From the sequence record MT446421.1: a DNA stretch of 64,000 nt; one strand, 5' to 3'. Shown in pieces: positions 10,359-64,000 of the stretch; the first letter of the stretch is position 1, and each line of letters begins with the position of its first letter. The DNA comes from Escherichia virus TH55. A program made the position numbers and the translations under genes. Below the pieces are notes generated by a model. That model saw nothing but the letters and a program-made list of their open reading frames with translations. It searched no databases and was not told where the DNA came from.

Positions 10359-10443
10359 TATATTTTTCCTTATCAATTCATGTTATTTTGTATGTTAATT
10401 ATATCATATTGGTTTGAAGCATAAATACACGGAAGGAGGATAT

Positions 10444-10759: not shown

Positions 10760-11788
10760 CTAAACTTTTGCGTACTTCGAAAGTCGCATTCTCGCCATCA
10801 ACCCTTGAGCAATGTTATCGGCCATATATGATTCGATTTGTTCAGGGGTTGCGCCCTCCGATTTAACCATCTCATTTATGTCTTTCGTATGCCATGGTGC
10901 ATTGTCCCAGAACATAACGGCTTCACCCGCTTCAACGAGCTTCTTCATACGTTTAATCGTATCCGGATGTCTTGGCTCGTTGTCCATTACCCATACTCGG
11001 GTTTCAGCATAAGGAACGGCTTCCAATGCTAATGTTCCACCGGTTATCGCAATGCTGTTAGGGATAAACAAACTATCAATCGGACCTTCCATTACCCACA
11101 CGCGCTTGCGCTCATCAATCTTGTCTACGCCATAGACTTTGGAAGCTTCTGGGTGAGCTTTGATTGTGATATATTTTTGTGGTGCATCTTTGCGAAGAGC
11201 TCGTCCTTGGAAAGATTCGATTTCTTTTTTGCCGTTGAAGATAGGAATAACCAAGCGTGGTTCATTCGTTTCATTCTTATACGTCCCAGGATTAACGGAG
11301 TTAACTAATGCAGGCCATTTGTTTGTAAACCATAACCGGTTCCAAACATTGCTCGGAATACACCGACTTTTCACATACTTAACTATCGGATGCGCTTCTG
11401 GTAAAGTATCGATTCTTTCGCAAAAAGCAAGCTCTTCAATAACCGGAGTTTTTTCTTGTTCTTTCGGAGCTTCTGCAACTTCATTACGTTGTCGACCGAA
11501 GGCGTTTTCCTTGTACTTCTCAACCATATATTCCCGGTGCAAATCCGGCTCAAACTCTTTTATGTATTTGCTTATATGCGTGGAGTAGTCACAGTTAAAA
11601 CATTTCACGTAAACCGCACCATCAGACGGATTGGTATACGCCCAGAATCGAGCCTTGTGCGAATCTTTCTGGGAGTCACCACAAACCTTGCAACGACAGT
11701 TTGCCTTAAATGTGCTCCCGGTGACTTCTCTATAACGTGGTTGATACGATAAAGCTCTGACTGCAAATTCTCTATCAATATATGACAT
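10760..11788 (-). CDS. 61: DNA primase gp61
   Basis: 342 aa; N-terminal Cys4 zinc-binding CRCKVCGD...CFNCDY; T4 gene 61 position and length. Confidence 0.85.
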   Translation of the reverse strand: MSYIDREFAVRALSYQPRYREVTGSTFKANCRCKVCGDSQKDSHKARFWAYTNPSDGAVYVKCFNCDYSTHISKYIKEFEPDLHREYMVEKYKENAFGRQRNEVAEAPKEQEKTPVIEELAFCERIDTLPEAHPIVKYVKSRCIPSNVWNRLWFTNKWPALVNSVNPGTYKNETNEPRLVIPIFNGKKEIESFQGRALRKDAPQKYITIKAHPEASKVYGVDKIDERKRVWVMEGPIDSLFIPNSIAITGGTLALEAVPYAETRVWVMDNEPRHPDTIKRMKKLVEAGEAVMFWDNAPWHTKDINEMVKSEGATPEQIESYMADNIAQGLMARMRLSKYAKV

Positions 11789-12007
11789 AGTTTCCTCATT
11801 TCAATGGCCCCGAAGGACCATTATACTGTAGGTTTATCGTCTTTATTCTTACGCTTTTTTGATGGGATTTGTTCAGGGCCTTTATTGACAACTGCCCCGG
11901 AAGTGGTACCTGTTGCGATATTAGTTGGGTTTCCACCTGCATCACCGGCAGCCATATCTTCGTTGATAAAATCTTTGAATGTTTTCATAACACCCCCTTT
12001 CCGCTAT

Positions 12008-12199
12008 TTATACAACGAAGATAGCTTTATCACCATTTGCATCAGTCACTTCATAAGTGTCTTCATGATACAACGGAATAATCCAGGTAACACCATCATC
12101 AGCGATAACATGGATTGCTTCTTGGTCTTGCGACACGATTTCATATTCTTCAAAAATCTGGAAGACCGAAATCTTAGAGCCCGTACACATTGCACTCAT
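12008..12199 (-). CDS. hypothetical protein
   Basis: 63-aa acidic ORF. Confidence 0.4.
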   Translation of the reverse strand: MSAMCTGSKISVFQIFEEYEIVSQDQEAIHVIADDGVTWIIPLYHEDTYEVTDANGDKAIFVV

Positions 12200-12395
12200 A
12201 TTGTTCCCTTCTTTTAATCAATTGACGATGTGCCTTTTTAAGTTTACGAATCTGACGTTTGGTCGGTCGTGCAACATAAGCTTGAGTAGTTACTCGTCCA
12301 AAAACTCCATACTTGGGAGACGGAGTATCAATAAAGACTTCCCACTGACAAGAGTAACTATATATTGCTTTAGAGAATTGGGTCAAAACAAACAT
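12174..12395 (-). CDS. small basic protein, PTKRQIR family
   Basis: 73 aa; W-E-V-F-I ... RPTKRQIRKLKK shared with 13548..13787 and 35532..35708. Confidence 0.5.
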   Translation of the reverse strand: MFVLTQFSKAIYSYSCQWEVFIDTPSPKYGVFGRVTTQAYVARPTKRQIRKLKKAHRQLIKRREQYECNVYGL

Positions 12396-12396
12396 A

Positions 12397-12756
12397 TTAA
12401 CCTCGCTTCATGAAGGCATTAAAAATCTGGTCATCAATATCAGTAGGCGGTTCTTGAGCTTTAACCCAAGCCCCTTCCAGAATGTCATTTGCTTCAGTAG
12501 ATATCATGACCCCAATTTCAGGGTTTCCGGTTATCCATACTGCACAATCGCGTACGTTCTTTTTATCAAATGGATAACCACGATTATCTTCACAAGGCCC
12601 ATTCATTGTCATAAACGAACGAGCCTTTATGATAACACCATCTTTAACGATGATATAACCAATCGCCTGATTATAACGGGGCTCACGAAATTCATAGTGA
12701 GCATTACCATTATTATTGCTCACCAGTTCAAAATTCAGAAAATTATAATAACTCAT
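12397..12756 (-). CDS. hypothetical protein
   Basis: 119 aa; C-terminus DDQIFNAFMKRG identical to that of next gene. Confidence 0.5.
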   Translation of the reverse strand: MSYYNFLNFELVSNNNGNAHYEFREPRYNQAIGYIIVKDGVIIKARSFMTMNGPCEDNRGYPFDKKNVRDCAVWITGNPEIGVMISTEANDILEGAWVKAQEPPTDIDDQIFNAFMKRG

Positions 12757-12757
12757 A

Positions 12758-13195
12758 CTAATCTCGCTTCATGAAGGCATTAAAAATCTGGTCGTCAACT
12801 GAATAAACAGGATTTTCCAGAATTTTCAAAAGACTGTTTTTGATGTACTTGCCAGGGATACCCATATTAACAATACTGTCATTCAATTCATTGTCAGGGT
12901 TGATGTCTTTAAATTCAAACCCTTCAAACTCAACCTTGTCAGGAATACCATCAGCGAAAAAATAAACCAATTGGTGCATTGTATTGCGCGAAAATAATTT
13001 AGACTTGACTGCAATAAGTTCTTTCCAATGGTTTAATTCTTTGTTAAGAAGTTTATGAGCAAACGTAATTCTATCATCACTATCAACAAGAAAATAACCC
13101 AGATATTGAATTTCGTCGCTCCAAAACACCCTGTATGCCTGCGCATTTGGATTTTTACAACGAAGTTTTTTGATAACCAAATTTCTGTTAATCAT
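12758..13195 (-). CDS. hypothetical protein
   Basis: Trimmed to ATG 13193-13195 (AGGTGA SD); C-terminus DDQIFNAFMKRD. Confidence 0.45.
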   Translation of the reverse strand: MINRNLVIKKLRCKNPNAQAYRVFWSDEIQYLGYFLVDSDDRITFAHKLLNKELNHWKELIAVKSKLFSRNTMHQLVYFFADGIPDKVEFEGFEFKDINPDNELNDSIVNMGIPGKYIKNSLLKILENPVYSVDDQIFNAFMKRD

Positions 13196-13196
13196 T

Positions 13197-13490
13197 TTAT
13201 TCACCTGTAACCCATTGAACAATTTTGCTATTGTCAAATGAAGCATCGCAATACAGAACATAGTTATACTGCATAACGTCACCAGAAGTCAATTGGTCAG
13301 ATACTTCTTTAACCATATCAGGGCGGTCACGTTTAGTAATATTCATGATGTCAGCGCGAATTTGAGTTTCAACATCAGTTTGGTCCGCAGTCATAGACCA
13401 CTCACAAAGGTTTTTATCAAGTCCAGCAGTAACTGGAGCTGTACCACATGATGCTACGGTAAGAATTGCCGCGATTAATAACTTTTTCAT
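13197..13490 (-). CDS. putative lipoprotein
   Basis: 97 aa; signal peptide with lipobox VASC; GGAG SD. Confidence 0.55.
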   Translation of the reverse strand: MKKLLIAAILTVASCGTAPVTAGLDKNLCEWSMTADQTDVETQIRADIMNITKRDRPDMVKEVSDQLTSGDVMQYNYVLYCDASFDNSKIVQWVTGE

Positions 13491-13518
13491 TTCAATCTCC
13501 TCAGTAGTTGATATGGAT

Positions 13519-13547
13519 AATATACAGCATTATCCCTTTGTTGTACA
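13519..13547 (-). promoter_or_regulatory. early-type promoter
   Basis: -35 TGTACA 13542-13547, 17 bp, -10 TATATT 13519-13524. Confidence 0.5.
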
Positions 13548-13787
13548 CTATTTTAATGCATCTTCCAGATAAATTTTACGGAATTTGCGTTTTGTCTGAC
13601 GAATCTGACGCTTGGTAGGTTTCACAGGAAATTCGAAGAACTCTACGTATTCTTGTTCATAACCGCCATGGTCTTCCGAAAGAACTAGTTCCCAGCTGCT
13701 TACGGTGCGTTGGATAAACATATTATGCTTACCAAAAGATTTATTCCAAAAAGAACTAGGGGTAGGTTTCATTAATGTGATATTCAT
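13548..13787 (-). CDS. small basic protein, PTKRQIR family
   Basis: 79 aa; ...KPTKRQIRQTKRKF. Confidence 0.5.
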   Translation of the reverse strand: MNITLMKPTPSSFWNKSFGKHNMFIQRTVSSWELVLSEDHGGYEQEYVEFFEFPVKPTKRQIRQTKRKFRKIYLEDALK

Positions 13788-13991
13788 TTAAATTTCCTCA
13801 ATGCGGGCATCATATTCAAAAACTTTATTGTCATTAACAAAGGCTTTAACCAGCGCATTATTCACTTCTGCATACTGCACTGTAACCCATTCAATCATAT
13901 TTTGGTCACTAACATCCAGCGCGGTTTCTTTGGTAAACATATTACCATTTTCAAACCAACCAATAAACACTACGTTCTCTAATTTATACAT
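13788..13991 (-). CDS. dmd: Dmd antitoxin (inhibitor of RnlA/LsoA)
   Basis: 67 aa; VVFIGWFENGNMFTKE...QYAEVNNALVKAF matches recalled T4 Dmd; sits between 61 and 41. Confidence 0.8.
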   Translation of the reverse strand: MYKLENVVFIGWFENGNMFTKETALDVSDQNMIEWVTVQYAEVNNALVKAFVNDNKVFEYDARIEEI

Positions 13992-14309
13992 TTAGATTTC
14001 CTCACAGAAGGCCCAGGCGGCGTGATAAACGGTTGCGCCTTTAGTATCATTTAAACAAACCACGTCAACAGGTGCAATCACACGATAAAGACGGGGTTCT
14101 CCTCCATATGAGCGAGCTGCTCTTCCTGCATAGATACGCGCCAAACCAATATCTTCAGTAAAAAACACACGCCCTAAATTTTTCTTACGCCCAACTTCTG
14201 ACAGAACACCAGTTGCATCAGGAGGGCAAAGCATATTTTGGATTCCAGCATTAGAGCTTGAGCCATGATAATAAACTTTGTATTCCGCCTTGCAATCAAT
14301 AGTTTTCAT
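13992..14309 (-). CDS. hypothetical protein with H-G-S motif (possible Arr/Tpt1-like ART fold)
   Basis: 105 aa; YYHGSSSN ... GRVFFTEDIGLARIYAG; functional call speculative. Confidence 0.45.
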   Translation of the reverse strand: MKTIDCKAEYKVYYHGSSSNAGIQNMLCPPDATGVLSEVGRKKNLGRVFFTEDIGLARIYAGRAARSYGGEPRLYRVIAPVDVVCLNDTKGATVYHAAWAFCEEI

Positions 14310-14380: not shown

Positions 14381-15820
14381 TTAAAATTTCATTTGAGCAG
14401 CAAGGTCATCCAGGTCGCTCCTGTTGACCCTGGTTTGTCGATTCATTTCGGCCTGGCGATTCATCTCACCGGTGGCTTCTTTAACCGTAGGGCCTTGTTT
14501 AGGAGCCGAATCATCATCAACCTCATACCAGCGCTGATTACCTTTCTTAACACCCATCTTGAATTTATTATAGTAGTTCTTATCACCATAACGAGACTTA
14601 AGCTGTTTGATTAACTGCAGCCCCATTTGAGCGAATTCTTCGGTCTCAACAACACCCAGCATAAAGTCAGCCGTGTGAGCAATACCAAAGGATTCTGCAA
14701 TGTCAGCCATATCAATCTCGGCTGCAACGTTCGCGCCCCTGGTTGTCTGCGCTGCAGTCCACAAGACCACATTTTTCTCAACTGCCAGACCACGAAGTTC
14801 TTCTGCAACCATCTTAATCAGGCCGTAACTGTTTTCGGTAAACGTTTTCAGTCTTGAGCTTGCACAGATTGCCAGGTAGTCAACAATAATCACATCCGGT
14901 ACAAACCCTTGCTTCAGTTTGTACTCGTTCAGTAATGCACGGAAGGTATCCGCATGAGCACCACCAGTTGGATATTGTTTTATCTTCAGAGTCCCGAGAG
15001 TCCCGGAAGCACGCCATTTTTCCATCTTAGCTTTATATTCCGCCCATGATATATGACCTTCATCAATATCATCCAGAGATACATCCAGCAAGTTGGCATC
15101 AATACGTTTGGCACATACTTCTTCGGCCATTTCCATGCTTATATAAAGAACGTTATGACCAGTCTGAAGATAGTCAGCCGCTAACGAACAAAGCCCCAGA
15201 GATTTACCGACATTCGTCCCGGCTAGTAAAACGTTCTCTGTACCGTACTCAACCCCGCCTTTCGTAATTTTATTCAGGATGTTAATGCGGAACGGAACTT
15301 TCTTCGATTTGTTCAGATAAGTCTGGAATCGAGCCTCGTAATCGTTTAACCAGTCATGACCAAGGGCAGAATCAAAACAGATGGACAATGCATCACGCAT
15401 GATGTCAGGGATAGCACCGATATCCGGGATTCGTTTATCACGTTTATCTTTAGGAAGTTCGGCATTACTCTGGATTTCGATAATCCTGGATGTGGCATTG
15501 AACATCGCAGACTTCTGTACATACTTTTCGGTTTCTCTAACCAACCATTCCTGGTCTTCTGGAGTATCGGCCAGGACTCCTAAAAGTTTCTTTGTGCCTT
15601 CATATTCGACTTCAGAAAGGTCAGAGTTGTCAAGTGCAATATCAAGTGCAGTCTTAGTTGGTACAGCTTGATATTCTTTTACGTGTTCGTTAATCGTATT
15701 AAAAAGGGTCTTCGCGGGACCCTTTTCAAAATATGTGCTATTCAGATATGGCCAGACTTTAACAAAATATTCCTTGTTAAAGAGTAGCTGGGATAAAATA
15801 GTTTCTACCACTTCCACCAC
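14381..15820 (-). CDS. 41: replicative DNA helicase gp41 (DnaB-like)
   Basis: 479 aa; Walker A GTNVGKS; colinear with recalled T4 gp41. Confidence 0.9.
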   Translation of the reverse strand: MVEVVETILSQLLFNKEYFVKVWPYLNSTYFEKGPAKTLFNTINEHVKEYQAVPTKTALDIALDNSDLSEVEYEGTKKLLGVLADTPEDQEWLVRETEKYVQKSAMFNATSRIIEIQSNAELPKDKRDKRIPDIGAIPDIMRDALSICFDSALGHDWLNDYEARFQTYLNKSKKVPFRINILNKITKGGVEYGTENVLLAGTNVGKSLGLCSLAADYLQTGHNVLYISMEMAEEVCAKRIDANLLDVSLDDIDEGHISWAEYKAKMEKWRASGTLGTLKIKQYPTGGAHADTFRALLNEYKLKQGFVPDVIIVDYLAICASSRLKTFTENSYGLIKMVAEELRGLAVEKNVVLWTAAQTTRGANVAAEIDMADIAESFGIAHTADFMLGVVETEEFAQMGLQLIKQLKSRYGDKNYYNKFKMGVKKGNQRWYEVDDDSAPKQGPTVKEATGEMNRQAEMNRQTRVNRSDLDDLAAQMKF

Positions 15821-16149
15821 CTCTTTTTCATTTTAATCTTATCAATTTCATCTTGTATTTGCATTGTAACACACTTTTCTACATGCACTGCAAGCTCCGC
15901 TTTGCGGTCTTCAGAAGGGGTGCCGAAATCAACTGAAACTTTTCCAGATGGTTCAATTTTAATTCCGGTTACGTACACAATGTGATTGGACCCATCAGGG
16001 AGTGATAACAGAATTTCCTGTCGTACGGTTCCCATGGATTGCCGGATAATCTCCAAACTTTTTTCGTAGTAAGGCACAGAAGGAGCCTTAGCTCCCTCCG
16101 CATCTTTCTCGAAATTATCTAAATCAGATAAATCGATATCATTCATCAA
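15805..16149 (-). CDS. hypothetical protein (T4 gene 40 position)
   Basis: 114-aa ORF between 41 and uvsX; assignment positional only. Confidence 0.45.
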   Translation of the reverse strand: MMNDIDLSDLDNFEKDAEGAKAPSVPYYEKSLEIIRQSMGTVRQEILLSLPDGSNHIVYVTGIKIEPSGKVSVDFGTPSEDRKAELAVHVEKCVTMQIQDEIDKIKMKKRWWKW

Positions 16150-18371: not shown

Positions 18372-21086
18372 TTAAAAGTCAAACATATCAAAAAGAGTTG
18401 CTTTCTTTTCGTAATCAACCTTTGCTGCTTCAGAGAACCCCGTTAACGGTTTGACAAAAGTCTTCTGGAACAGTGTGTTGTAGTCCATCCACTGCAGAAC
18501 CTGGTCACGAATTTCAATCGGGAGTTCAATCCCTGATGGCCATGCAATCACAGTTTCGCCAAACGGGTTACCAACTTTAAGAGGAAGCACATACACCTTT
18601 TCCCCTTCCATGATTTGTGGAACAGTCTTCAACCCTTTGGTTGCACGCATGTAAGCGAGCACGCCTTTGATATGAGCCGGACACTTAAATCCAGGGAAAC
18701 CACCCTCATTATATTTCTGGATGTTGTTAACCGATGATACACCTGCGATTGTCATGTAGTTAAGCTCATTAAATTCCTTATTGAATTCCTTGAAGTATGT
18801 CTGCAGAGATTCTTCACCTTCTTGCAGCATGCGACGGATACATTCTTTCAGGGCTTTCTGACATGCTTTTGGCGTACTCGACTTTTGAGTTTCCAGACCC
18901 ATGATTTTCAGTTTCGGAACAGCATATCGGGTGCCTTCCATATCGTACACGTTCAGAGCATAACGCTTCTTCGCCGTCCAGAATCCACCAACACCTTTAG
19001 AACCCAACGGAGGACATGCAATCGCTTCACGGTCCATAAACATAAGGTGCTGTTTGTTGTTCATGTATTCAGCCAGCTCACGGAAAGCTTTATCGATTGC
19101 TGGTTCCAGACGGTCTTTCGCAAACTTGTCCATGAAGTCAACCAGGTGGTTTGTATCGCGGAATTTAGATTCGCCACCAACCTTTTTAATCAGGTTATCG
19201 CACTGGATATAAATGGAGTCAGTATCGCCATAGAATACATATGTTTCACCACTTGTACCACAAACACTATCAAAATATTCGTTAACTTTACGCTCAATCC
19301 ACTGCAATGTAAGTTGTCCGAAAGATGTAATCGCGGTTGCATTTCGCAGGTCAAAGTAACGGAACCAGATATTACCCAGAGCGCCATAACAACTGTTGAT
19401 AAGCAGTTTACGGTTAATCTGTGCGGTCATGCCTGCAACTTCTTCCATCTGCGCTTTGTACAACATACCATTCAGAACTGTTTGATTCAGACCATGCAAG
19501 GTTGTTTTCATATTATCATCAAAGTCATAACGATAATCAACTTCAGGCTCGGTTGTACCAGTTCCTGGATTACGCAGGGCTTCCTTAATCAGTTCACCAT
19601 TACGTTGAGCCGCAAGCATATAACCTTTGTGCTCTTTACGCTGATTAAACACCTTGGTGACTTCTGTTGGAATAATACCCGCAACATCTTTAAAATACAT
19701 CATACCGTTTGGAGCACAACTAAATGTATCAGATGGACGGTCAGCAGTTCCTGCGATGTATTCGTACATTGGCGCTGGTGTAAATGACCCGGCAATCGTT
19801 TCTGGACTAATGTTAATCTGTCGGATGATGCTCGGATACAGAGATGTTAAGTCACAGCTCATAACGTATTTGTATGCGTTCGGAATCGGTTCCTTAACAA
19901 ATGCACCTGGGAACGATTGACGAACATGTGATTTGGTTTCCGGAATGACTTTATTTTGAGTCTTCAGGCTGTTAAAGATAATCGCATCCCAAGTTTTGAT
20001 TGGGCTGAATACAGACTGAATCTGCATTTTTGCATAATAACCCATTGACTGGCTAAGGTTAATAAACTGACGCTTACGGTCAATCTGTACAACACGATAA
20101 ACATCGATGATGTTATAAGAAATATACCGTTGGTGATTTGATTCGCGCAGTTTAGAAATCGGGCCATCATACGGGAGTTTACCAACACCCAGCTCAGATT
20201 CCGCAACATAATCCAACGAATAAGACGGTTGGTTTGTGAAGCTGAACTTTTTATACAGGTCCAGATAATCCAGAACAGAGATACCCAGAATCTGAACGAT
20301 TTCTTGTTCTTCACCGAAACCGTTGTTAATGACCTTAACTTTTGTACGACGATGTGGACTCAAACGTTTTGCCGTAGCTTCACCAAATACATTTTTAAGG
20401 CGGTTGTAGATATATGGAATATCAAACTTCTCGATGTTCCAACCAGTTAACATAACCGGAGTTTTCTCGTTCCAGAATACCAAATACTGTTGGAGCATTT
20501 CTTCTTCTGAATCGAAAGCCATATAAACAATTTTTTCCAGGATTTCTTCAGGGACTTCATCACCGCCATCTTCTTGCAGCTTAGCAGCAATATCGATAGA
20601 CCATTGCTCCACAGTGGCGTATGGTGAGCCCAAAAGGTCAAAGACATAGAATTTATCGTCTATCGAATCATAGTGCGTCAGGGCATCAATAGGGTGACGT
20701 GCTTCAGACGGCTCAGGGAACCCATCAGGAGATGTCACCTCGATATCGAAGTTAGCCACACGGATTTTACTTGAATCGTATTTGATTTCGTGCGGGTAAC
20801 GGTCGGACAAGTATGCGAGTTTAAAGTCATCCATACCCATAGCTTCGAGACCCATGTCATTCATTCGCTTCATCCACTGGGATGCATCACGCATGGAATC
20901 GAATTCTTTTTTCACGCAACCTTTATTATAGATGTCTGTATATTTTGCAGCTTGGTCTTCGCGGGCATGCATAAACAGGCATGGGGCATAGGGGATTTCA
21001 CGAACACGTTCATGACCATTCTTGTCAATGTATCGTTCGAGTAGGTTGTCACCGATTTGTTCGATAGTTAAATAAAATTCTTGCAT
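18372..21086 (-). CDS. 43: DNA polymerase gp43 (family B)
   Basis: 904 aa; colinear with recalled T4 gp43 including exonuclease and YGDTDS polymerase motifs. Confidence 0.95.
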   Translation of the reverse strand: MQEFYLTIEQIGDNLLERYIDKNGHERVREIPYAPCLFMHAREDQAAKYTDIYNKGCVKKEFDSMRDASQWMKRMNDMGLEAMGMDDFKLAYLSDRYPHEIKYDSSKIRVANFDIEVTSPDGFPEPSEARHPIDALTHYDSIDDKFYVFDLLGSPYATVEQWSIDIAAKLQEDGGDEVPEEILEKIVYMAFDSEEEMLQQYLVFWNEKTPVMLTGWNIEKFDIPYIYNRLKNVFGEATAKRLSPHRRTKVKVINNGFGEEQEIVQILGISVLDYLDLYKKFSFTNQPSYSLDYVAESELGVGKLPYDGPISKLRESNHQRYISYNIIDVYRVVQIDRKRQFINLSQSMGYYAKMQIQSVFSPIKTWDAIIFNSLKTQNKVIPETKSHVRQSFPGAFVKEPIPNAYKYVMSCDLTSLYPSIIRQINISPETIAGSFTPAPMYEYIAGTADRPSDTFSCAPNGMMYFKDVAGIIPTEVTKVFNQRKEHKGYMLAAQRNGELIKEALRNPGTGTTEPEVDYRYDFDDNMKTTLHGLNQTVLNGMLYKAQMEEVAGMTAQINRKLLINSCYGALGNIWFRYFDLRNATAITSFGQLTLQWIERKVNEYFDSVCGTSGETYVFYGDTDSIYIQCDNLIKKVGGESKFRDTNHLVDFMDKFAKDRLEPAIDKAFRELAEYMNNKQHLMFMDREAIACPPLGSKGVGGFWTAKKRYALNVYDMEGTRYAVPKLKIMGLETQKSSTPKACQKALKECIRRMLQEGEESLQTYFKEFNKEFNELNYMTIAGVSSVNNIQKYNEGGFPGFKCPAHIKGVLAYMRATKGLKTVPQIMEGEKVYVLPLKVGNPFGETVIAWPSGIELPIEIRDQVLQWMDYNTLFQKTFVKPLTGFSEAAKVDYEKKATLFDMFDF

Positions 21087-24288: not shown

Positions 24289-24540
24289 TTAATCAAAGTA
24301 TTCATATGCGAACCAGGCATTGTGTCTGTTCGCGATTATTTTAACATATTCTTCACCGAAAGCGTTTTGCAAGTCACGTTCAGTGACAAGGTGTTCATCT
24401 TTCGAAAAGGTATTAACTAACACATACCGTTTAATTTCAGGGACAGCCAGTAAATGCTGCCCGGTTAAGAAGTCAGCCATAATAGCCTCTATTATAACAT
24501 CCTTGTTTAAAGCATTATTCCATAACAGTGAATCGACCAA
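24289..24540 (-). CDS. hypothetical protein (45.2 position)
   Basis: 83-aa ORF; 5' end overlaps gene 46 by 26 nt, start uncertain. Confidence 0.45.
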   Translation of the reverse strand: MVDSLLWNNALNKDVIIEAIMADFLTGQHLLAVPEIKRYVLVNTFSKDEHLVTERDLQNAFGEEYVKIIANRHNAWFAYEYFD

Positions 24541-26197
24541 CTTTTTTCATCTGGAGATGTTGCCCGTATGCTTCCGGGTCATGGTCTCGGTGGCTGATGA
24601 TAAAGATGTTGGTGTCTTCCAATTTGTTCAGGATGGTAGCAATTGCTTTAACACCCTCTACGTCAGTGGCCGAGTCAAAAACTTCATCCAGAATCAATGT
24701 GTTAATATTAACACCAGATACTTTCGCAGCAATATCGCGCCATGTAAACAGCAATGCAATATCTATACGAGCTTTTTCACCCTGGCTAAATGATGCATAA
24801 CTAAAGTCTTCACGACCACGAGATTTAATCGTTTCGTTGAACTCTTCATCTAACGTAAAGCTATAATCAGCTTCCATAACTTTAAGATAAGCGTTTATCT
24901 GCTTATTAAAGATAGGAATATATTTCTTAATAATCGCGCCCTTAATACCAGAATCTTTCAGCATATCCGTTAGGATACCACGTTGATATTTTTCCATCAC
25001 AAGGTCGGATTTCTGTTTGACTATTTTATCAAGCTGGTCTTGAAGCATTTTAATGTCTGCTGCATGGTCAATAAATTCTGACTTAGCTTGCTCGATTAAT
25101 GCTTTAACCTTTTTAGCTTTTTCGACAGTCTGGACTAAGGTTTGTTTCTTAGTTTGAATGTCTTGAGCTATTGTACGCTGGTTTTGTCTTGCCTTGGTAT
25201 ACGCATCAAATTGCTCTTGAACAGCATTCTGGCGAGCTTTATGCTTATCAGCTGATGCATTACATTCTTCAATCTTTGACTCAATCCTGGCGACAATAGG
25301 GTCTCCTGGATGCAACTGACTGGCACAAGTCTGACAACAACCGCCCTTCTCGTACAGACCAACAACCTTTCGGTAATCGTCAATCTTCGATTTAATCAGG
25401 AATGATTCCTGCTTTAACTTTGTGAGTTCGTGCTCGGGGTCTTCTCCCAAAATTATCTCGGTCAGTCTTGTTGTTGCTTCTTCGATAGTTGCCTTGATTC
25501 CACGTGCTTCTGTAGCAAGTTCATCATACATCGTTTGCAGCCGCAACAGATTATCACCTGACAATTTTCTTTGACGGTCTTCGTTGTCCTGATAGATTTT
25601 AATCTGTTGAACGATACCATCATGCTGCACATCCATTACCTGGATTTGACTATTGACTTCGCGGATAAGAGATTTGTTCAGCTTATCCATATCGGCCAGT
25701 ACAGAAACCTCTAACAGGTCTTCGACGAGTTTTCTTCTTGCAGGAGTGGATAGGCCCATAAAAGGGGTATATCCAGCTGTGCCGAGTACGACAATTTGTT
25801 TGAAGCTTGCGTAGGACATTCCGATAAGCTGTTCAAATTCCGCTTGGAAGTCTTTACTGCTGGCAGATTCATCAAGACGTTTACCGCCACAAGAGATTTC
25901 AAAAACATTGGGTTTTTGCCCGCGTTTGATATAGTATTCTTTTCCATCATATTCCATCCACAATTCAACGAGCATATCTTTTTTGTTGCTCGAGTTAATC
26001 AGCTGACCTTTCTTTACATCACGGAAAGGCTTACCGAACATAGCAAAGGTAACCGCTTCAAGGAACGTAGATTTACCTGCGCCATTCTTGCCAGTTACAA
26101 GAGTTTTCTGGACTTTATCCAGTTCAACAGTAATCGGTTGAGCACCAACCGACATAATATTTTTATAGATAACTTTCTTAAGCTTAAAAGTCTTCAC
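24515..26197 (-). CDS. 46: recombination nuclease subunit gp46 (Rad50/SbcC-like)
   Basis: 560 aa; Walker A GKNGAGKST, coiled-coil, CxxC hook, C-terminal signature/D-loop. Confidence 0.9.
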   Translation of the reverse strand: MKTFKLKKVIYKNIMSVGAQPITVELDKVQKTLVTGKNGAGKSTFLEAVTFAMFGKPFRDVKKGQLINSSNKKDMLVELWMEYDGKEYYIKRGQKPNVFEISCGGKRLDESASSKDFQAEFEQLIGMSYASFKQIVVLGTAGYTPFMGLSTPARRKLVEDLLEVSVLADMDKLNKSLIREVNSQIQVMDVQHDGIVQQIKIYQDNEDRQRKLSGDNLLRLQTMYDELATEARGIKATIEEATTRLTEIILGEDPEHELTKLKQESFLIKSKIDDYRKVVGLYEKGGCCQTCASQLHPGDPIVARIESKIEECNASADKHKARQNAVQEQFDAYTKARQNQRTIAQDIQTKKQTLVQTVEKAKKVKALIEQAKSEFIDHAADIKMLQDQLDKIVKQKSDLVMEKYQRGILTDMLKDSGIKGAIIKKYIPIFNKQINAYLKVMEADYSFTLDEEFNETIKSRGREDFSYASFSQGEKARIDIALLFTWRDIAAKVSGVNINTLILDEVFDSATDVEGVKAIATILNKLEDTNIFIISHRDHDPEAYGQHLQMKKVGRFTVME

Positions 26198-27806: not shown

Positions 27807-27855
27807 ATAATCTCCTCAGTTGGTTCATTTTATCATCCCGAATATAAAGCAAAAA

Positions 27856-28688: not shown

Positions 28689-28940
28689 TTAATCCTTGGG
28701 AGTTAACTCAATTGTAAAATATAGATTAGCATTATCTACATGATAACGGTAATCAACGTTATTATCCGGTGAAGTAAATTCCAGATTCCGGACGTTTAAA
28801 GGGTCGATATCAATTGGAAGACCTTTTATGTCTCGCAGATAAAGTTTAATGAAATATGGGAGCGCAGTAAAGTCTTCCTCGATTTTATCTAAAAAATCGG
28901 TAATATCAAATTGATGTTCCATATAAAAAATCCAAATCAC
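28689..28940 (-). CDS. hypothetical protein
   Basis: 83-aa ORF; 5' end overlaps gene 55, start uncertain. Confidence 0.45.
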
Positions 28941-29463
28941 CTTCTTTATCTTTGGCGCTCTTATCAGACCCTGGCGCTTTAACTAAAGAGGATTCGTACT
29001 GTGTCATTTTGTCATAGATGTCCTGGATAAATGTTTCATCAGCCAGAGCCACCATATCGTCATCACGTGAATCATACACGTTATGGACGAAGTAGCTATA
29101 TTTCTTTGCCATTTCTTTACGTTCTTTTTTGATACGCTGAACGAAAGCATTGAAGCAAGCCATTGTTATGTAAGCATGTGGATTATCGTATTTTGTTTCG
29201 TCGAAGTTGTGAAGACCTTTTATTGCGGCCTCAATTCCGTCTGCAATCATTTCTTGCTTCCAGGATTGGGTATATCCGGAGAAGTTGAAACGTTTGCTAA
29301 GACCTTCGGCTATAAGCATAATTGCCAGACCAATAACGTCGTTCTGGCGAATAATTTTATTCGGGTCGGTGTTCGCATTCAGCTTCTGTTTCCACTCCGA
29401 AATAGCTTTCAGAAGCTCTTTATTATTTACATAGTTATTCTTGGTTAATTTAATTTCGTTCAT
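28906..29463 (-). CDS. 55: late-transcription sigma factor gp55
   Basis: 185 aa; NYVNNKELL...[36 protein letters not shown] matches recalled T4 gp55. Confidence 0.9.
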
Positions 29464-48016: not shown

Positions 48017-48467
48017 AATCCACCACTATTAAATCAATATCAGGAGTAAACATGTCGATTAATTTAGAAACCTTTTCCCAATCTCCACCTGCAATACCAC
48101 AACCAATGCGAGGAATGTAAATTACCGGTTTAAACAAAAGGGTTTCTGCTTGTAGATTTAATTCTATCATACAATTTACTAAAGCACCATAATCAAGATT
48201 AGGGCCCGGTTCATATTGAGTGTACAAATTATAACACATACCAAACCCAGTAGGTTTATGTTTAAAAACAATAGACATATCGCCTAATTTATCACGAGAA
48301 CCATATTCAGTGGTGGTTTTATCTATTTCTAAAACTTTTGGATAGGCCTTCGCCAACTGTCCAGCTACACCAGAACCCATTGTGTGGAAGCAGTTACAAC
48401 CATGAGCAATAATATTGCCTTGAAGAAAGAGGGCGACGATATCGCCCTTAATATACTGGGTAATCAT
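48003..48467 (-). CDS. macro-domain-like protein (possible ADP-ribose binding/processing)
   Basis: 154 aa; IAHGCNC...MGSGVAG and IGCGIAGG glycine-rich segments resemble macro-domain motifs; tentative. Confidence 0.5.
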   Translation of the reverse strand: MITQYIKGDIVALFLQGNIIAHGCNCFHTMGSGVAGQLAKAYPKVLEIDKTTTEYGSRDKLGDMSIVFKHKPTGFGMCYNLYTQYEPGPNLDYGALVNCMIELNLQAETLLFKPVIYIPRIGCGIAGGDWEKVSKLIDMFTPDIDLIVVDYEPE

Positions 48468-59959: not shown

Positions 59960-60031
59960 GGTATTTCCTTCAGTTGGTTAATGTTTTATTATCCAGGGAA
60001 CATACTATCATGTTCCCATTAAAGCACTAAT

Positions 60032-63464: not shown

Positions 63465-63584
63465 AACACCTCAAATAAAATTAAGTAAAGTAAGTTTGAT
63501 TAATAGCACATGCTATTATGAAAGGTTCTTTGAGGGAAGAACCTTTGGTAATAGAGGGTACTTATTAATAATAACGCGTTTTTA

Positions 63585-64000
63585 TTAAAGCATATCAAGC
63601 GCTTTAACAGATGGGATTTGGATTTCTTCTTCGATTATATATAGCTTAACATAAGAAATTACACGCATGAAATCACCATCATTTTCACAAGCCATGCCTA
63701 AAAGTTCGGTCAGGGCTTCATTCAGGTAGTATTCTTCATCATCGCCATTTAGCAATGCATCTAAATCTTCTACACCCAGAACCTTACTTAAAAATTCATG
63801 GGTTAACTGACCAGATTTTACACCAGATGCAATGTAGTCGATAACCAAGTGTTTAACCACATCCCATTCTGAATTACCACATTTGTTGCGGTTATTGCAA
63901 TGCGAACCATAGAAAAGTTCCAGGATATATTTGTACTGTTGTATTTCTTGTTCTTCTACACCAAATACAGTCTGGGTTTTATAATTATCACCATCATTTT
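63585..64000 (-). CDS. hypothetical protein, 5' end cut by window edge
   Basis: Frame stays open upstream of the GTG at 63860 to position 64000. Confidence 0.45.
   Translation of the reverse strand, partial: NDGDNYKTQTVFGVEEQEIQQYKYILELFYGSHCNNRNKCGNSEWDVVKHLVIDYIASGVKSGQLTHEFLSKVLGVEDLDALLNGDDEEYYLNEALTELLGMACENDGDFMRVISYVKLYIIEEEIQIPSVKALDML

Follow-up and report, generated by a model that had tools for sequence, protein, structure and literature searches.

The sp-to-gene 61 interval

The window, a 64,000-nucleotide (nt) stretch of Escherichia virus TH55 (sequence record MT446421.1), comes from a Gaprivervirus-type T4-like phage (Tevenvirinae). Two adjacent minus-strand genes in it, here called A and B, end in the same short segment, here called the tail, and are the subject of this report. 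They lie directly downstream of the spackle gene (sp) in the interval from sp to the primase gene (gene 61). This interval is the "anti-toxin island", described in the literature as the anti-toxin-antitoxin (anti-TA) island (PMC9391042). In T4 it holds dmd (anti-RnlA), tifA (61.4, anti-ToxN) and adfA (61.2, anti-DarT) (PMC9391042; PMC11257639), and A and B occupy the same slot as adfA. The DNA of the locus was 100% identical to that of phages TH22 and UPEC07, 95-96% identical to that of Shigella phage SP18 and 88% identical to that of VR7. The features of the slot were as follows:

13197..13490 (-), sp, Pfam T4_Spackle E 4e-43, the conserved left border of the variable slot
12758..13195 (-), gene B, 145 amino acids (aa)
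12761..12796 (-), tail codons of gene B, DDQIFNAFMKRD
12763..12793, exact 31-nt repeat, copy 2
12754..12798, extended 45-nt repeat, copy 2 (tail, stop codon and ATG of the next gene)
12397..12756 (-), gene A, 119 aa
12400..12435 (-), tail codons of gene A, DDQIFNAFMKRG
12402..12432, exact 31-nt repeat, copy 1
12393..12437, extended 45-nt repeat, copy 1 (tail, stop codon and ATG of the next gene)
12174..12395 (-), second DUF7279 gene (gp61.4/TifA-like), right neighbour of the A tail, Pfam DUF7279 E 3e-20, annotated in VR7 as 61.4-like

The 31-mer CTCGCTTCATGAAGGCATTAAAAATCTGGTC was present in the window in two exact copies, at 12402-12432 and 12763-12793. No further copy was found in the 64 kb with up to three mismatches allowed, and none of 100 shuffled controls gave a match even at three mismatches. 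The extended 45-nt copies (repeat family D1) were 93% identical. Directly before their stop codons gene A ends in TDIDDQIFNAFMKRG and gene B in YSVDDQIFNAFMKRD, and the last 12 amino acids of the two proteins are the same. The position and length of the repeat and the common tail DDQIFNAFMKR, first noticed in a sequence-only reading of the window, were confirmed in this way. The gene limits given in that reading agreed with the coding sequences (CDS) annotated in SP18, VR7 and MN01; gene A is annotated as a CDS in SP18 and VR7, and the start of gene B (MINRNL) is that annotated in relatives.

Relationship of A and B to AdfA and conservation of the tail

Gene A was assigned to phrog_4122 (E 1e-52) and gene B to phrog_8539 (E 4e-93; JS98 ORF030c-like). 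A BLASTP comparison of the two proteins aligned only the last 27 residues, with 52% identity, and at this plain sequence level the earlier description of the genes as unrelated over most of their length was correct. At the level of profiles and structure models it did not hold. The tail is the C-terminus of AdfA (T4 gp61.2; Pfam PF23813, Anti-DarT factor A), which in T4 ends in VSIDDQIFNAFMNRG and scored 450 bits on the Pfam profile. Full-length comparison of the A family with AdfA by hhalign gave a probability of 98% (E 3e-13), with A 2-119 aligned to T4 AdfA 96-208 over 108 colinear columns. The T2 ortholog of A, 44% identical to the A protein of the window, cleared the PF23813 gathering threshold (32.5 vs 27 bits) over profile positions 113-211. 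When the tails were removed and 150 column shuffles per pair served as controls, the A-B score of 26.4 was reached by none of the 150 shuffles and the A-AdfA score of 22.3 by one.

A hairpin motif of the type GyIIVKDxxII was common to the A, B and AdfA families and occurred twice in AdfA. AlphaFold2 (AF2) models of A and B, with confidence (pLDDT) values of 55 and 70, agreed in the placement of their strands (E18-25 and E30-38). A helix and a linker of low confidence come next, and at the end the tail forms an isolated helix (A residues 108-117; B residues 133-142). In Foldseek searches of BFVD, the B model retrieved an A-family protein (E 1e-4), and the A model retrieved the VR25 B protein (E 1.4e-3), a 157-aa Yersinia phage protein (E 1e-3) and a 212-aa protein (E 1e-2). 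The B model had no significant match in the PDB, the best being the acetate kinase N-domain at E 0.025, so the fold offers no clue to function. NCBIfam contained no model for A, B or AdfA.

Judged from these profile and model comparisons, A and B appear to be diverged tandem paralogs of the AdfA superfamily and not unrelated genes, a membership that is new here. The link between A and AdfA is solid; that of B is weaker. Gene A reads as a one-domain protein homologous to the C-terminal half of AdfA and with the conserved tail, and gene B as a diverged AdfA-like N-terminal sheet domain with a linker helix and the same tail. Gene B followed by gene A corresponds in order to the two halves of AdfA, which suggests a fission or fusion relationship. 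Binding or neutralisation of DarT is known for T4 AdfA and for RB69 AdfA(R164H) only; the latter, the active RB69 variant, associates with DarT1 in a two-hybrid assay (PMC11257639). Position 164 of AdfA could not be assigned to a specific residue of A, as the alignment is unreliable in that stretch. A and B may likewise act against toxins. With their assignment, two families listed as "hypothetical", phrog_4122 (332 phage records) and phrog_8539 (85 phage records), would join the AdfA anti-defence superfamily.

A degenerate DNA scan of IMG/VR for the tail returned 27 loci. At 18 of these, all on T4-like contigs, the match formed the last few codons of an open reading frame (ORF); the other nine matches were internal and due to chance. 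The tail-bearing ORFs fell into three families:

AdfA family, about 208-216 aa, 642 phage records by tblastn, 487 of them full-length
A family (phrog_4122), 117-125 aa, 332 phage records by tblastn
B family (phrog_8539), 143-148 aa, 85 phage records by tblastn

An exhaustive search of 1.84 billion representative proteins with a tail-centred profile found nine proteins at E<=0.001, all of the AdfA, A or B type. Two of them, P0053 and P0054, were new divergent A-like forms, and on the contigs of P0043, P0044, P0053 and P0054 the gene in each case stood immediately after sp. Word-indexed protein searches with A, B and the tail profile returned close relatives or fragments only, and the tail-bearing families were not catalogued there. 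In the genomes of 185,579 bacterial species the tail motif had three matches, all internal to unrelated proteins and attributable to chance, and host mimicry or a bacterial origin of the tail was rejected on this ground. The tail-bearing family is small, confined to phages and confined to the locus after sp. According to the literature, T2 is a phage naturally without adfA. T2 (PV648364) nonetheless encodes a 118-aa A-type protein at 1552-1920 of the fetched locus (L032) and so appears to carry a half-size AdfA-like gene, which is also new here.

The C-terminal pattern of the superfamily was [VI]DDQIFNAFM[KN][RK][GD], and A and B of the window carry [VI]DDQIFNAFM[NK]RG; as a sequence the tail peptide reads SIDDQIFNAFMNRG. 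The tail DNA was compared between the window and about 50 fetched loci. The 27-nt core encoding DDQIFNAFM occurred in 17 distinct DNA versions, with one, no and eight variable sites at the first, second and third codon positions, respectively. All degenerate third positions were polymorphic (GAT/GAC twice, CAA/CAG, ATT/ATA, TTT/TTC twice, AAT/AAC and GCC/GCT/GCA), and the only amino-acid change in the core was D to Q in P0043. As eight of the nine variable sites were third positions, although only 11 of the 81 possible single changes in the core are synonymous, the peptide is probably maintained by purifying selection on the protein. The three codons 3' of the core varied in protein sequence ([KNES][RK][GDSF]), and the linker preceding the tail was variable in length and composition. 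In P0054, the domain of which is highly divergent from that of A, DDQIFNAFMNRG was nevertheless kept.

The tail was seen in every member of the A, B and AdfA families and in every lineage examined, with almost all of its variation synonymous. The idea that it was recent, or ancestral to only one of the two genes, was not supported by this distribution. A state that the sequence-only reading had named as contrary to itself, with both tails conserved and divergent in DNA, was essentially what was found at locus L074, which carries a B-like gene and A in tandem. The two tails there differed at 5 of 27 core nucleotides and at four of the next nine, and the core peptides were identical. The last 12 residues are the most strongly conserved element of AdfA-like proteins and have so far not been studied.

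Cassette joints, origin of the identity and regulatory signals

Related phages carried zero, one or two tail-bearing genes, and the slot after sp was observed in the following states:

AdfA only: T4
A only: T2
AdfA then A: Shfl2, Lutter, teqdroes and L029
AdfA then ORF033c: RB69
B then DUF7279: JS98-like phages and VR26
B then A then DUF7279: the window, SP18 and VR7
B then A' then ORF033c-like: MN01
nothing (sp, then TTAGAGGCTAAT, then 61.1): L047 and L048
frameshifted A: L049
unrelated 69-aa ORF: L067-69, a genus with an sp 48% identical

Between sp and the start of A, T2 retains a 12-nt scar, TTAGAGGTTAGT, of the end of the AdfA tail. The tail and junction DNA of T4 AdfA and T2 A were identical, as expected if the single-gene states are tandem arrays after deletion at the joints. 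Compared across relatives, the tail joints appear to be the breakpoints of cassette gain, loss and truncation.

Two further arrangements were recorded. The frameshifted gene A (L049 2790-3162; proteins P0047-P0049) has a 1-nt deletion in a run of A and was seen in some Tequatrovirus contigs; gene callers give only a 33-aa remnant (MLSDEINDLLND to DDQIFNAFMNRG), and gene A appears dispensable and decaying in some lineages. Yersinia phage phiD1 (L037, NC_027353) has AdfA, A, a 33-aa A remnant and a second A at 1164-2700, that is, four tails in a row. This array was not used as evidence, since it contains runs of N and may be an assembly artefact of the repeat.

The exact identity over 31 nt was confined to the window phage and its closest relatives; in SP18, VR7 and MN01 one to four synonymous sites distinguished the A tail from the B tail. 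The A tail was constant across these phages (CAG..TTC..TAA), and the B tail formed a series:

VR7, VR25, VR26 and MN01: CAA..TTT..TAA
SP18: CAA..TTC..TAA
window and VR20: CAG..TTC..TAG

According to this series, the 31 nt of B came to match those of A through two synonymous changes. In the phages with this upstream match, the B stop codon shifted from TAA to TAG, away from that of A.

It was claimed in the sequence-only reading that recent recombination, gene conversion or module shuffling at the 3' ends had produced the identity. In its strict form, with about 31-45 nt copied between tails that were earlier different or between a tail-bearing and a tail-less gene, this explanation is considered unlikely, although it is the most probable of the alternatives. 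T-even phages recombine very actively. Beside this general point, it is favoured by the exact match in the window and in VR20, by the identical tail and junction DNA of T4 AdfA and T2 A, and by the variation among close relatives in whether the B tail has the A-type alleles CAG and TTC. It is also favoured by a lineage signature common to both tails: in Gaprivervirus both have AAG-CGA (Lys-Arg), and in Tequatrovirus both have AAT-AGA or AAT-AAA (Asn-Arg/Lys). This signature hints at occasional homogenisation, and L074, with its 5 of 27 differences, shows that none is required.

Against copying stands the conservation of both tails in all orthologs of both genes in every lineage, together with the synonymous differences between the copies in relatives. 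With only eight silently variable sites, two or three point changes from the relatives' state suffice to reach identity, and the B stop codon diverged while the upstream part became identical. Tail distances within a genome (0-5 of 27) overlapped those between lineages (0-4 of 27, and 1-3 of 27 within one family), so orthologs of different lineages were as close as paralogs of one genome. A first proposal of strong concerted evolution was toned down because of this overlap. It was concluded that shared ancestry and the very small silent-site space account for most of the identity. Of the original claim there remain the joints around the tail as points of cassette gain and loss and, possibly, conversion of a short patch; a recent exchange is not required.

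The tail DNA also carries signals for the gene that follows. At nearly all tails examined the stop codon was followed by one nucleotide and the next ATG, with the exception of L075 (8-nt spacer), and the Arg-Gly codons (CGAGGT or AGAGGT) form the Shine-Dalgarno (SD) sequence of the next gene. The T4 middle promoter P61 has its start site at 19122 (PMC2988021 Table 1, Hinton 2010 review). MotA boxes follow the consensus (a/t)(a/t)(a/t)TGCTTtA, 12 +/- 1 bp upstream of the -10 element, and MotA tolerates deviations from it (PMC2988021). On the T4 sequence, position 19122 lies 7 nt downstream of TAATAT (-12..-7), a hexamer made up of the stop codon of 61.2, a single T and the AT of the 61.1 start codon. 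The Asn-Ala-Phe codons of the tail contain TGCTT (-31..-27), and the 12-nt spacer fits the published rule. The genome record of Lutter annotates both of its own tails (AATGCTTTTATGAAT[AG/AA]AGGTTAATAT) as promoters. The corresponding elements in the window were:

12393..12404 (-), coupling joint A/DUF7279, SD GAGG (12401-12404) inside the Arg-Gly codons, stop TAA, one T, ATG 12393-12395
12754..12765 (-), coupling joint B/A, GAGA, stop TAG, one T, ATG of gene A
12394..12421 (-), positional homolog of P61 in the A tail, TAATGCCTTC (12412-12421), 12-nt spacer, TAATAT (12394-12399), predicted start about 12387
12755..12782 (-), second P61-like element in the B tail, by homology only, same MotA-box-like sequence (12773-12782), weaker -10 TAGTAT (12755-12760)

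The box TAATGCCTTC matches the MotA box at eight of ten positions with a spacing of 12, and the strict pattern TGCTTYA-N11-13-TANNNT misses both tails. The -10 element of the A tail, TAATAT, agrees with the sigma-70 -10 criterion (TAtaaT); that of the B tail is TAGTAT. The tails may be active as promoters in the window phage, as judged by homology. The strict pattern had eight matches in the window against 1.5 expected, from which the window phage appears to use T4-type middle promoters. Canonical MotA-type matches on the minus strand were located at 10398-10421, 24491-24514, 25023-25047, 27827-27851, 48161-48186, 60002-60026 and 63568-63592, mostly just upstream of genes.

These signals raise the alternative that the repeat is primarily a regulatory DNA cassette which combines a MotA-type middle promoter with a ribosome-binding site and start codon and was duplicated with each gene, the peptide being incidental. 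The exact fit of the P61 start to the 61.2-stop/61.1-start TAATAT, the MotA box within tail codons, the promoter annotations of Lutter, the SD sequence in the Arg-Gly codons and the recurrent stop/start joint all speak for it. It is nevertheless thought decidedly improbable. Variation is nearly confined to synonymous third positions even in the core of the MotA box (GCT, GCC and GCA), the DDQIF codons upstream of the box are conserved equally, and most of the non-synonymous variation falls in the spacer codons ([KN][RK][GD]). In Dhakavirus a TGA stop codon changes the -10 element to TGATAT and destroys it, and in L075 the joint is different; the peptide is intact in both. Since the peptide persists where promoter elements have changed or disappeared, the promoter cannot account for the conservation in general, and a purely DNA-level cause was rejected as the overall constraint. 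The third alternative, chance resemblance or an artefact of assembly or duplication, has nothing in its favour other than the low complexity of AT-rich phage DNA and is refuted by the shuffling test and by the recurrence of the arrangement in dozens of independently sequenced phages.

The remaining genes of the region, all on the minus strand, were:

14381..15820 (-), gp41 helicase
13992..14309 (-), ORF with no assigned product between dmd and gp41, 105 aa
13788..13991 (-), dmd
13548..13787 (-), DUF7279 gene (gp61.4/TifA-like)
12008..12199 (-), RB69-ORF033c-like gene
11821..11988 (-), 61.1
10760..11788 (-), primase gp61

The 105-aa ORF had no Pfam match. It is conserved in SP18, MN01, L071 and L076 and is another, uncharacterised gene of the anti-toxin island. 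In L071, the 173-kb contig encoding P0054, gp41 and the ORF that precedes dmd are separated by an HNH endonuclease gene (871-1491), probably an inserted homing endonuclease and absent from the window. The two DUF7279 paralogs, 12174..12395 (-) and 13548..13787 (-), lie on either side of sp, B and A. Both contain the motif PTKRQIR; they also have 22 nt in common (12246-12267 and 13599-13620; 91% DNA identity) and form the island's second set of diverged paralogs with a conserved C-terminal segment. A motif of about 20 nt was repeated at successive gene starts (13482-13503, 13779-13800, 13985-14004 and 15823-15844; plus strand TTTTCATTTNAATNTCCTCA, coding strand TGAGGANATTNAAATGAAAA). It is a conserved context of Shine-Dalgarno sequence and start codon and no mobile repeat.

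Proposed account and comparison with known systems

The feature is explained mainly by known things, namely the AdfA family and the T4 P61 promoter with its coupling joint. Taken as a whole, the observations are probably best accounted for by A and B being diverged AdfA paralogs with an ancestral tail under selection on the protein, overlapping signals for the downstream gene, and joints that act as breakpoints. Each protein would consist of a fast-evolving beta-sheet/helix domain, a variable and probably flexible linker, and a near-invariant C-terminal amphipathic helix. The peptide would be ancestral to the whole superfamily and kept by purifying selection. The same DNA would carry the SD sequence and the stop+1+ATG joint of the next gene, and in T4 also the P61 MotA box and -10 element. 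Every cassette would then end in the same 45 nt or so, and the joints would be sites of gain, loss and truncation. The 31-nt identity would be a near-identical ancestral state with two or three synonymous changes added, or a short gene-conversion patch. New in this account is that the most conserved element of the proteins is a 12-residue tail with codons that overlap a promoter and coincide with cassette breakpoints. Since tail and mapped promoter overlap in T4, changing the 3' ends of adfA-like genes by deletion or tagging may also alter the expression of 61.1 and primase.

Several findings weigh against this account. The A protein of the window scored 20.7 bits on PF23813, below the gathering threshold of 27 bits, and matched with its tail only (A 106-119 to profile positions 198-211 of 211). 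The B protein had no PF23813 match at E<=1 and no Pfam match at all, and its score with AdfA after removal of the tails (19.4) was weak, being reached by 4 of 150 shuffles. Membership of both proteins in the superfamily thus follows from transitive and profile-profile evidence. The tail had low pLDDT values of 35-52 in the models, so the detached helix is suggestive only. The tail distances within genomes were not clearly smaller than those between lineages and settle conversion neither way. The window box TGCCTTC deviates from the consensus TGCTTtA, and the promoter elements are broken in Dhakavirus and L075.

The tail may be a short C-terminal interaction helix with a hydrophobic face of I, F, F and M. 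It could serve all these proteins for docking or as an effector, and target specificity would come from the variable domain; the R164H change that enables DarT1 binding by RB69 AdfA lies in the domain, outside the tail. Other roles might be a plug for a conserved toxin site or a self-association helix. A bolder version, held to be rather improbable, is that the tail is a portable docking peptide by which exchangeable domains that neutralise toxins are tethered to one unvarying partner at the replication fork, such as the gp45 sliding clamp, and that the same nucleotides provide the primase middle promoter and the coupling signals. If this were true, protein adaptor, promoter and recombination joint would be superimposed and anti-defence cassettes would be hot-swappable.

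The gp45 ligands gp43, gp55 and gp33 have C-terminal sliding-clamp-binding epitopes (Geiduschek and Kassavetis 2010, PMC2988020). In the window, gp43 (18372..21086, -) ends in KKATLFDMFDF, RB69-like rather than T4-like, and the late sigma factor gp55 is encoded at 28906..29463 (-); by homology to T4 and RB69 the C-termini of both are the expected epitopes. The tail resembles such epitopes as a short acidic and hydrophobic C-terminal segment (DDQIFNAFM) behind a variable, apparently unstructured linker, and QIFNAF of the tail may correspond to TLFDMF of gp43 at about three of six residues, which is a lead only. It differs in its basic end (K/N-R-G), the epitopes being acidic or aromatic. A regular expression applied to the C-termini of the coding strand found gp43, gp55, A and B only, a circular result, as it was built on those sequences.

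The closest known system is AdfA of T4 and RB69 (gp61.2, PF23813). A and B share with it the slot directly after sp, the identical C-terminal peptide and the beta-hairpin motif GxIxVKDxxI, and A aligns with AdfA 96-208. AdfA differs in having about 210 aa and two domains, whereas A (119 aa) and B (145 aa) are single-domain proteins. The latter stand in tandem, so that the tail occurs twice, and fall below the Pfam threshold; an anti-DarT function would be an extrapolation from AdfA. The A tail resembles T4 P61 in a -10 TAATAT that spans stop and start codons, a 12-nt spacer and a box in the Asn-Ala-Phe codons. It differs from it in the box (TGCTTTT in T4, TGCCTTC in the window) and in the presence of two elements, of which the upstream copy has the -10 TAGTAT.

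A third likeness is to the PeSL elements that mediate shuffling in the hyperplastic regions of T4-type phages (PMC2839356, PMC4122927). In both cases non-essential genes are flanked by a short conserved repeat that contains a promoter, and breakpoints of insertion, deletion and replacement between related phages fall at this repeat. PeSLs are intergenic and consist of sigma-70-type early promoters with a terminator stem-loop. A scan of 11700-13700 detected no terminator-like site and reported no -35/-10 early promoter at the tails, and identity with a PeSL was rejected for lack of the stem-loop or terminator. Unlike a PeSL, the element of the window is part of coding sequence, has a middle promoter as its counterpart and is also constrained as a peptide. 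It may represent a clear example of a counter-defence island where the breakpoints of cassette gain and loss fall together with a coding tail, a promoter and a translational-coupling joint.

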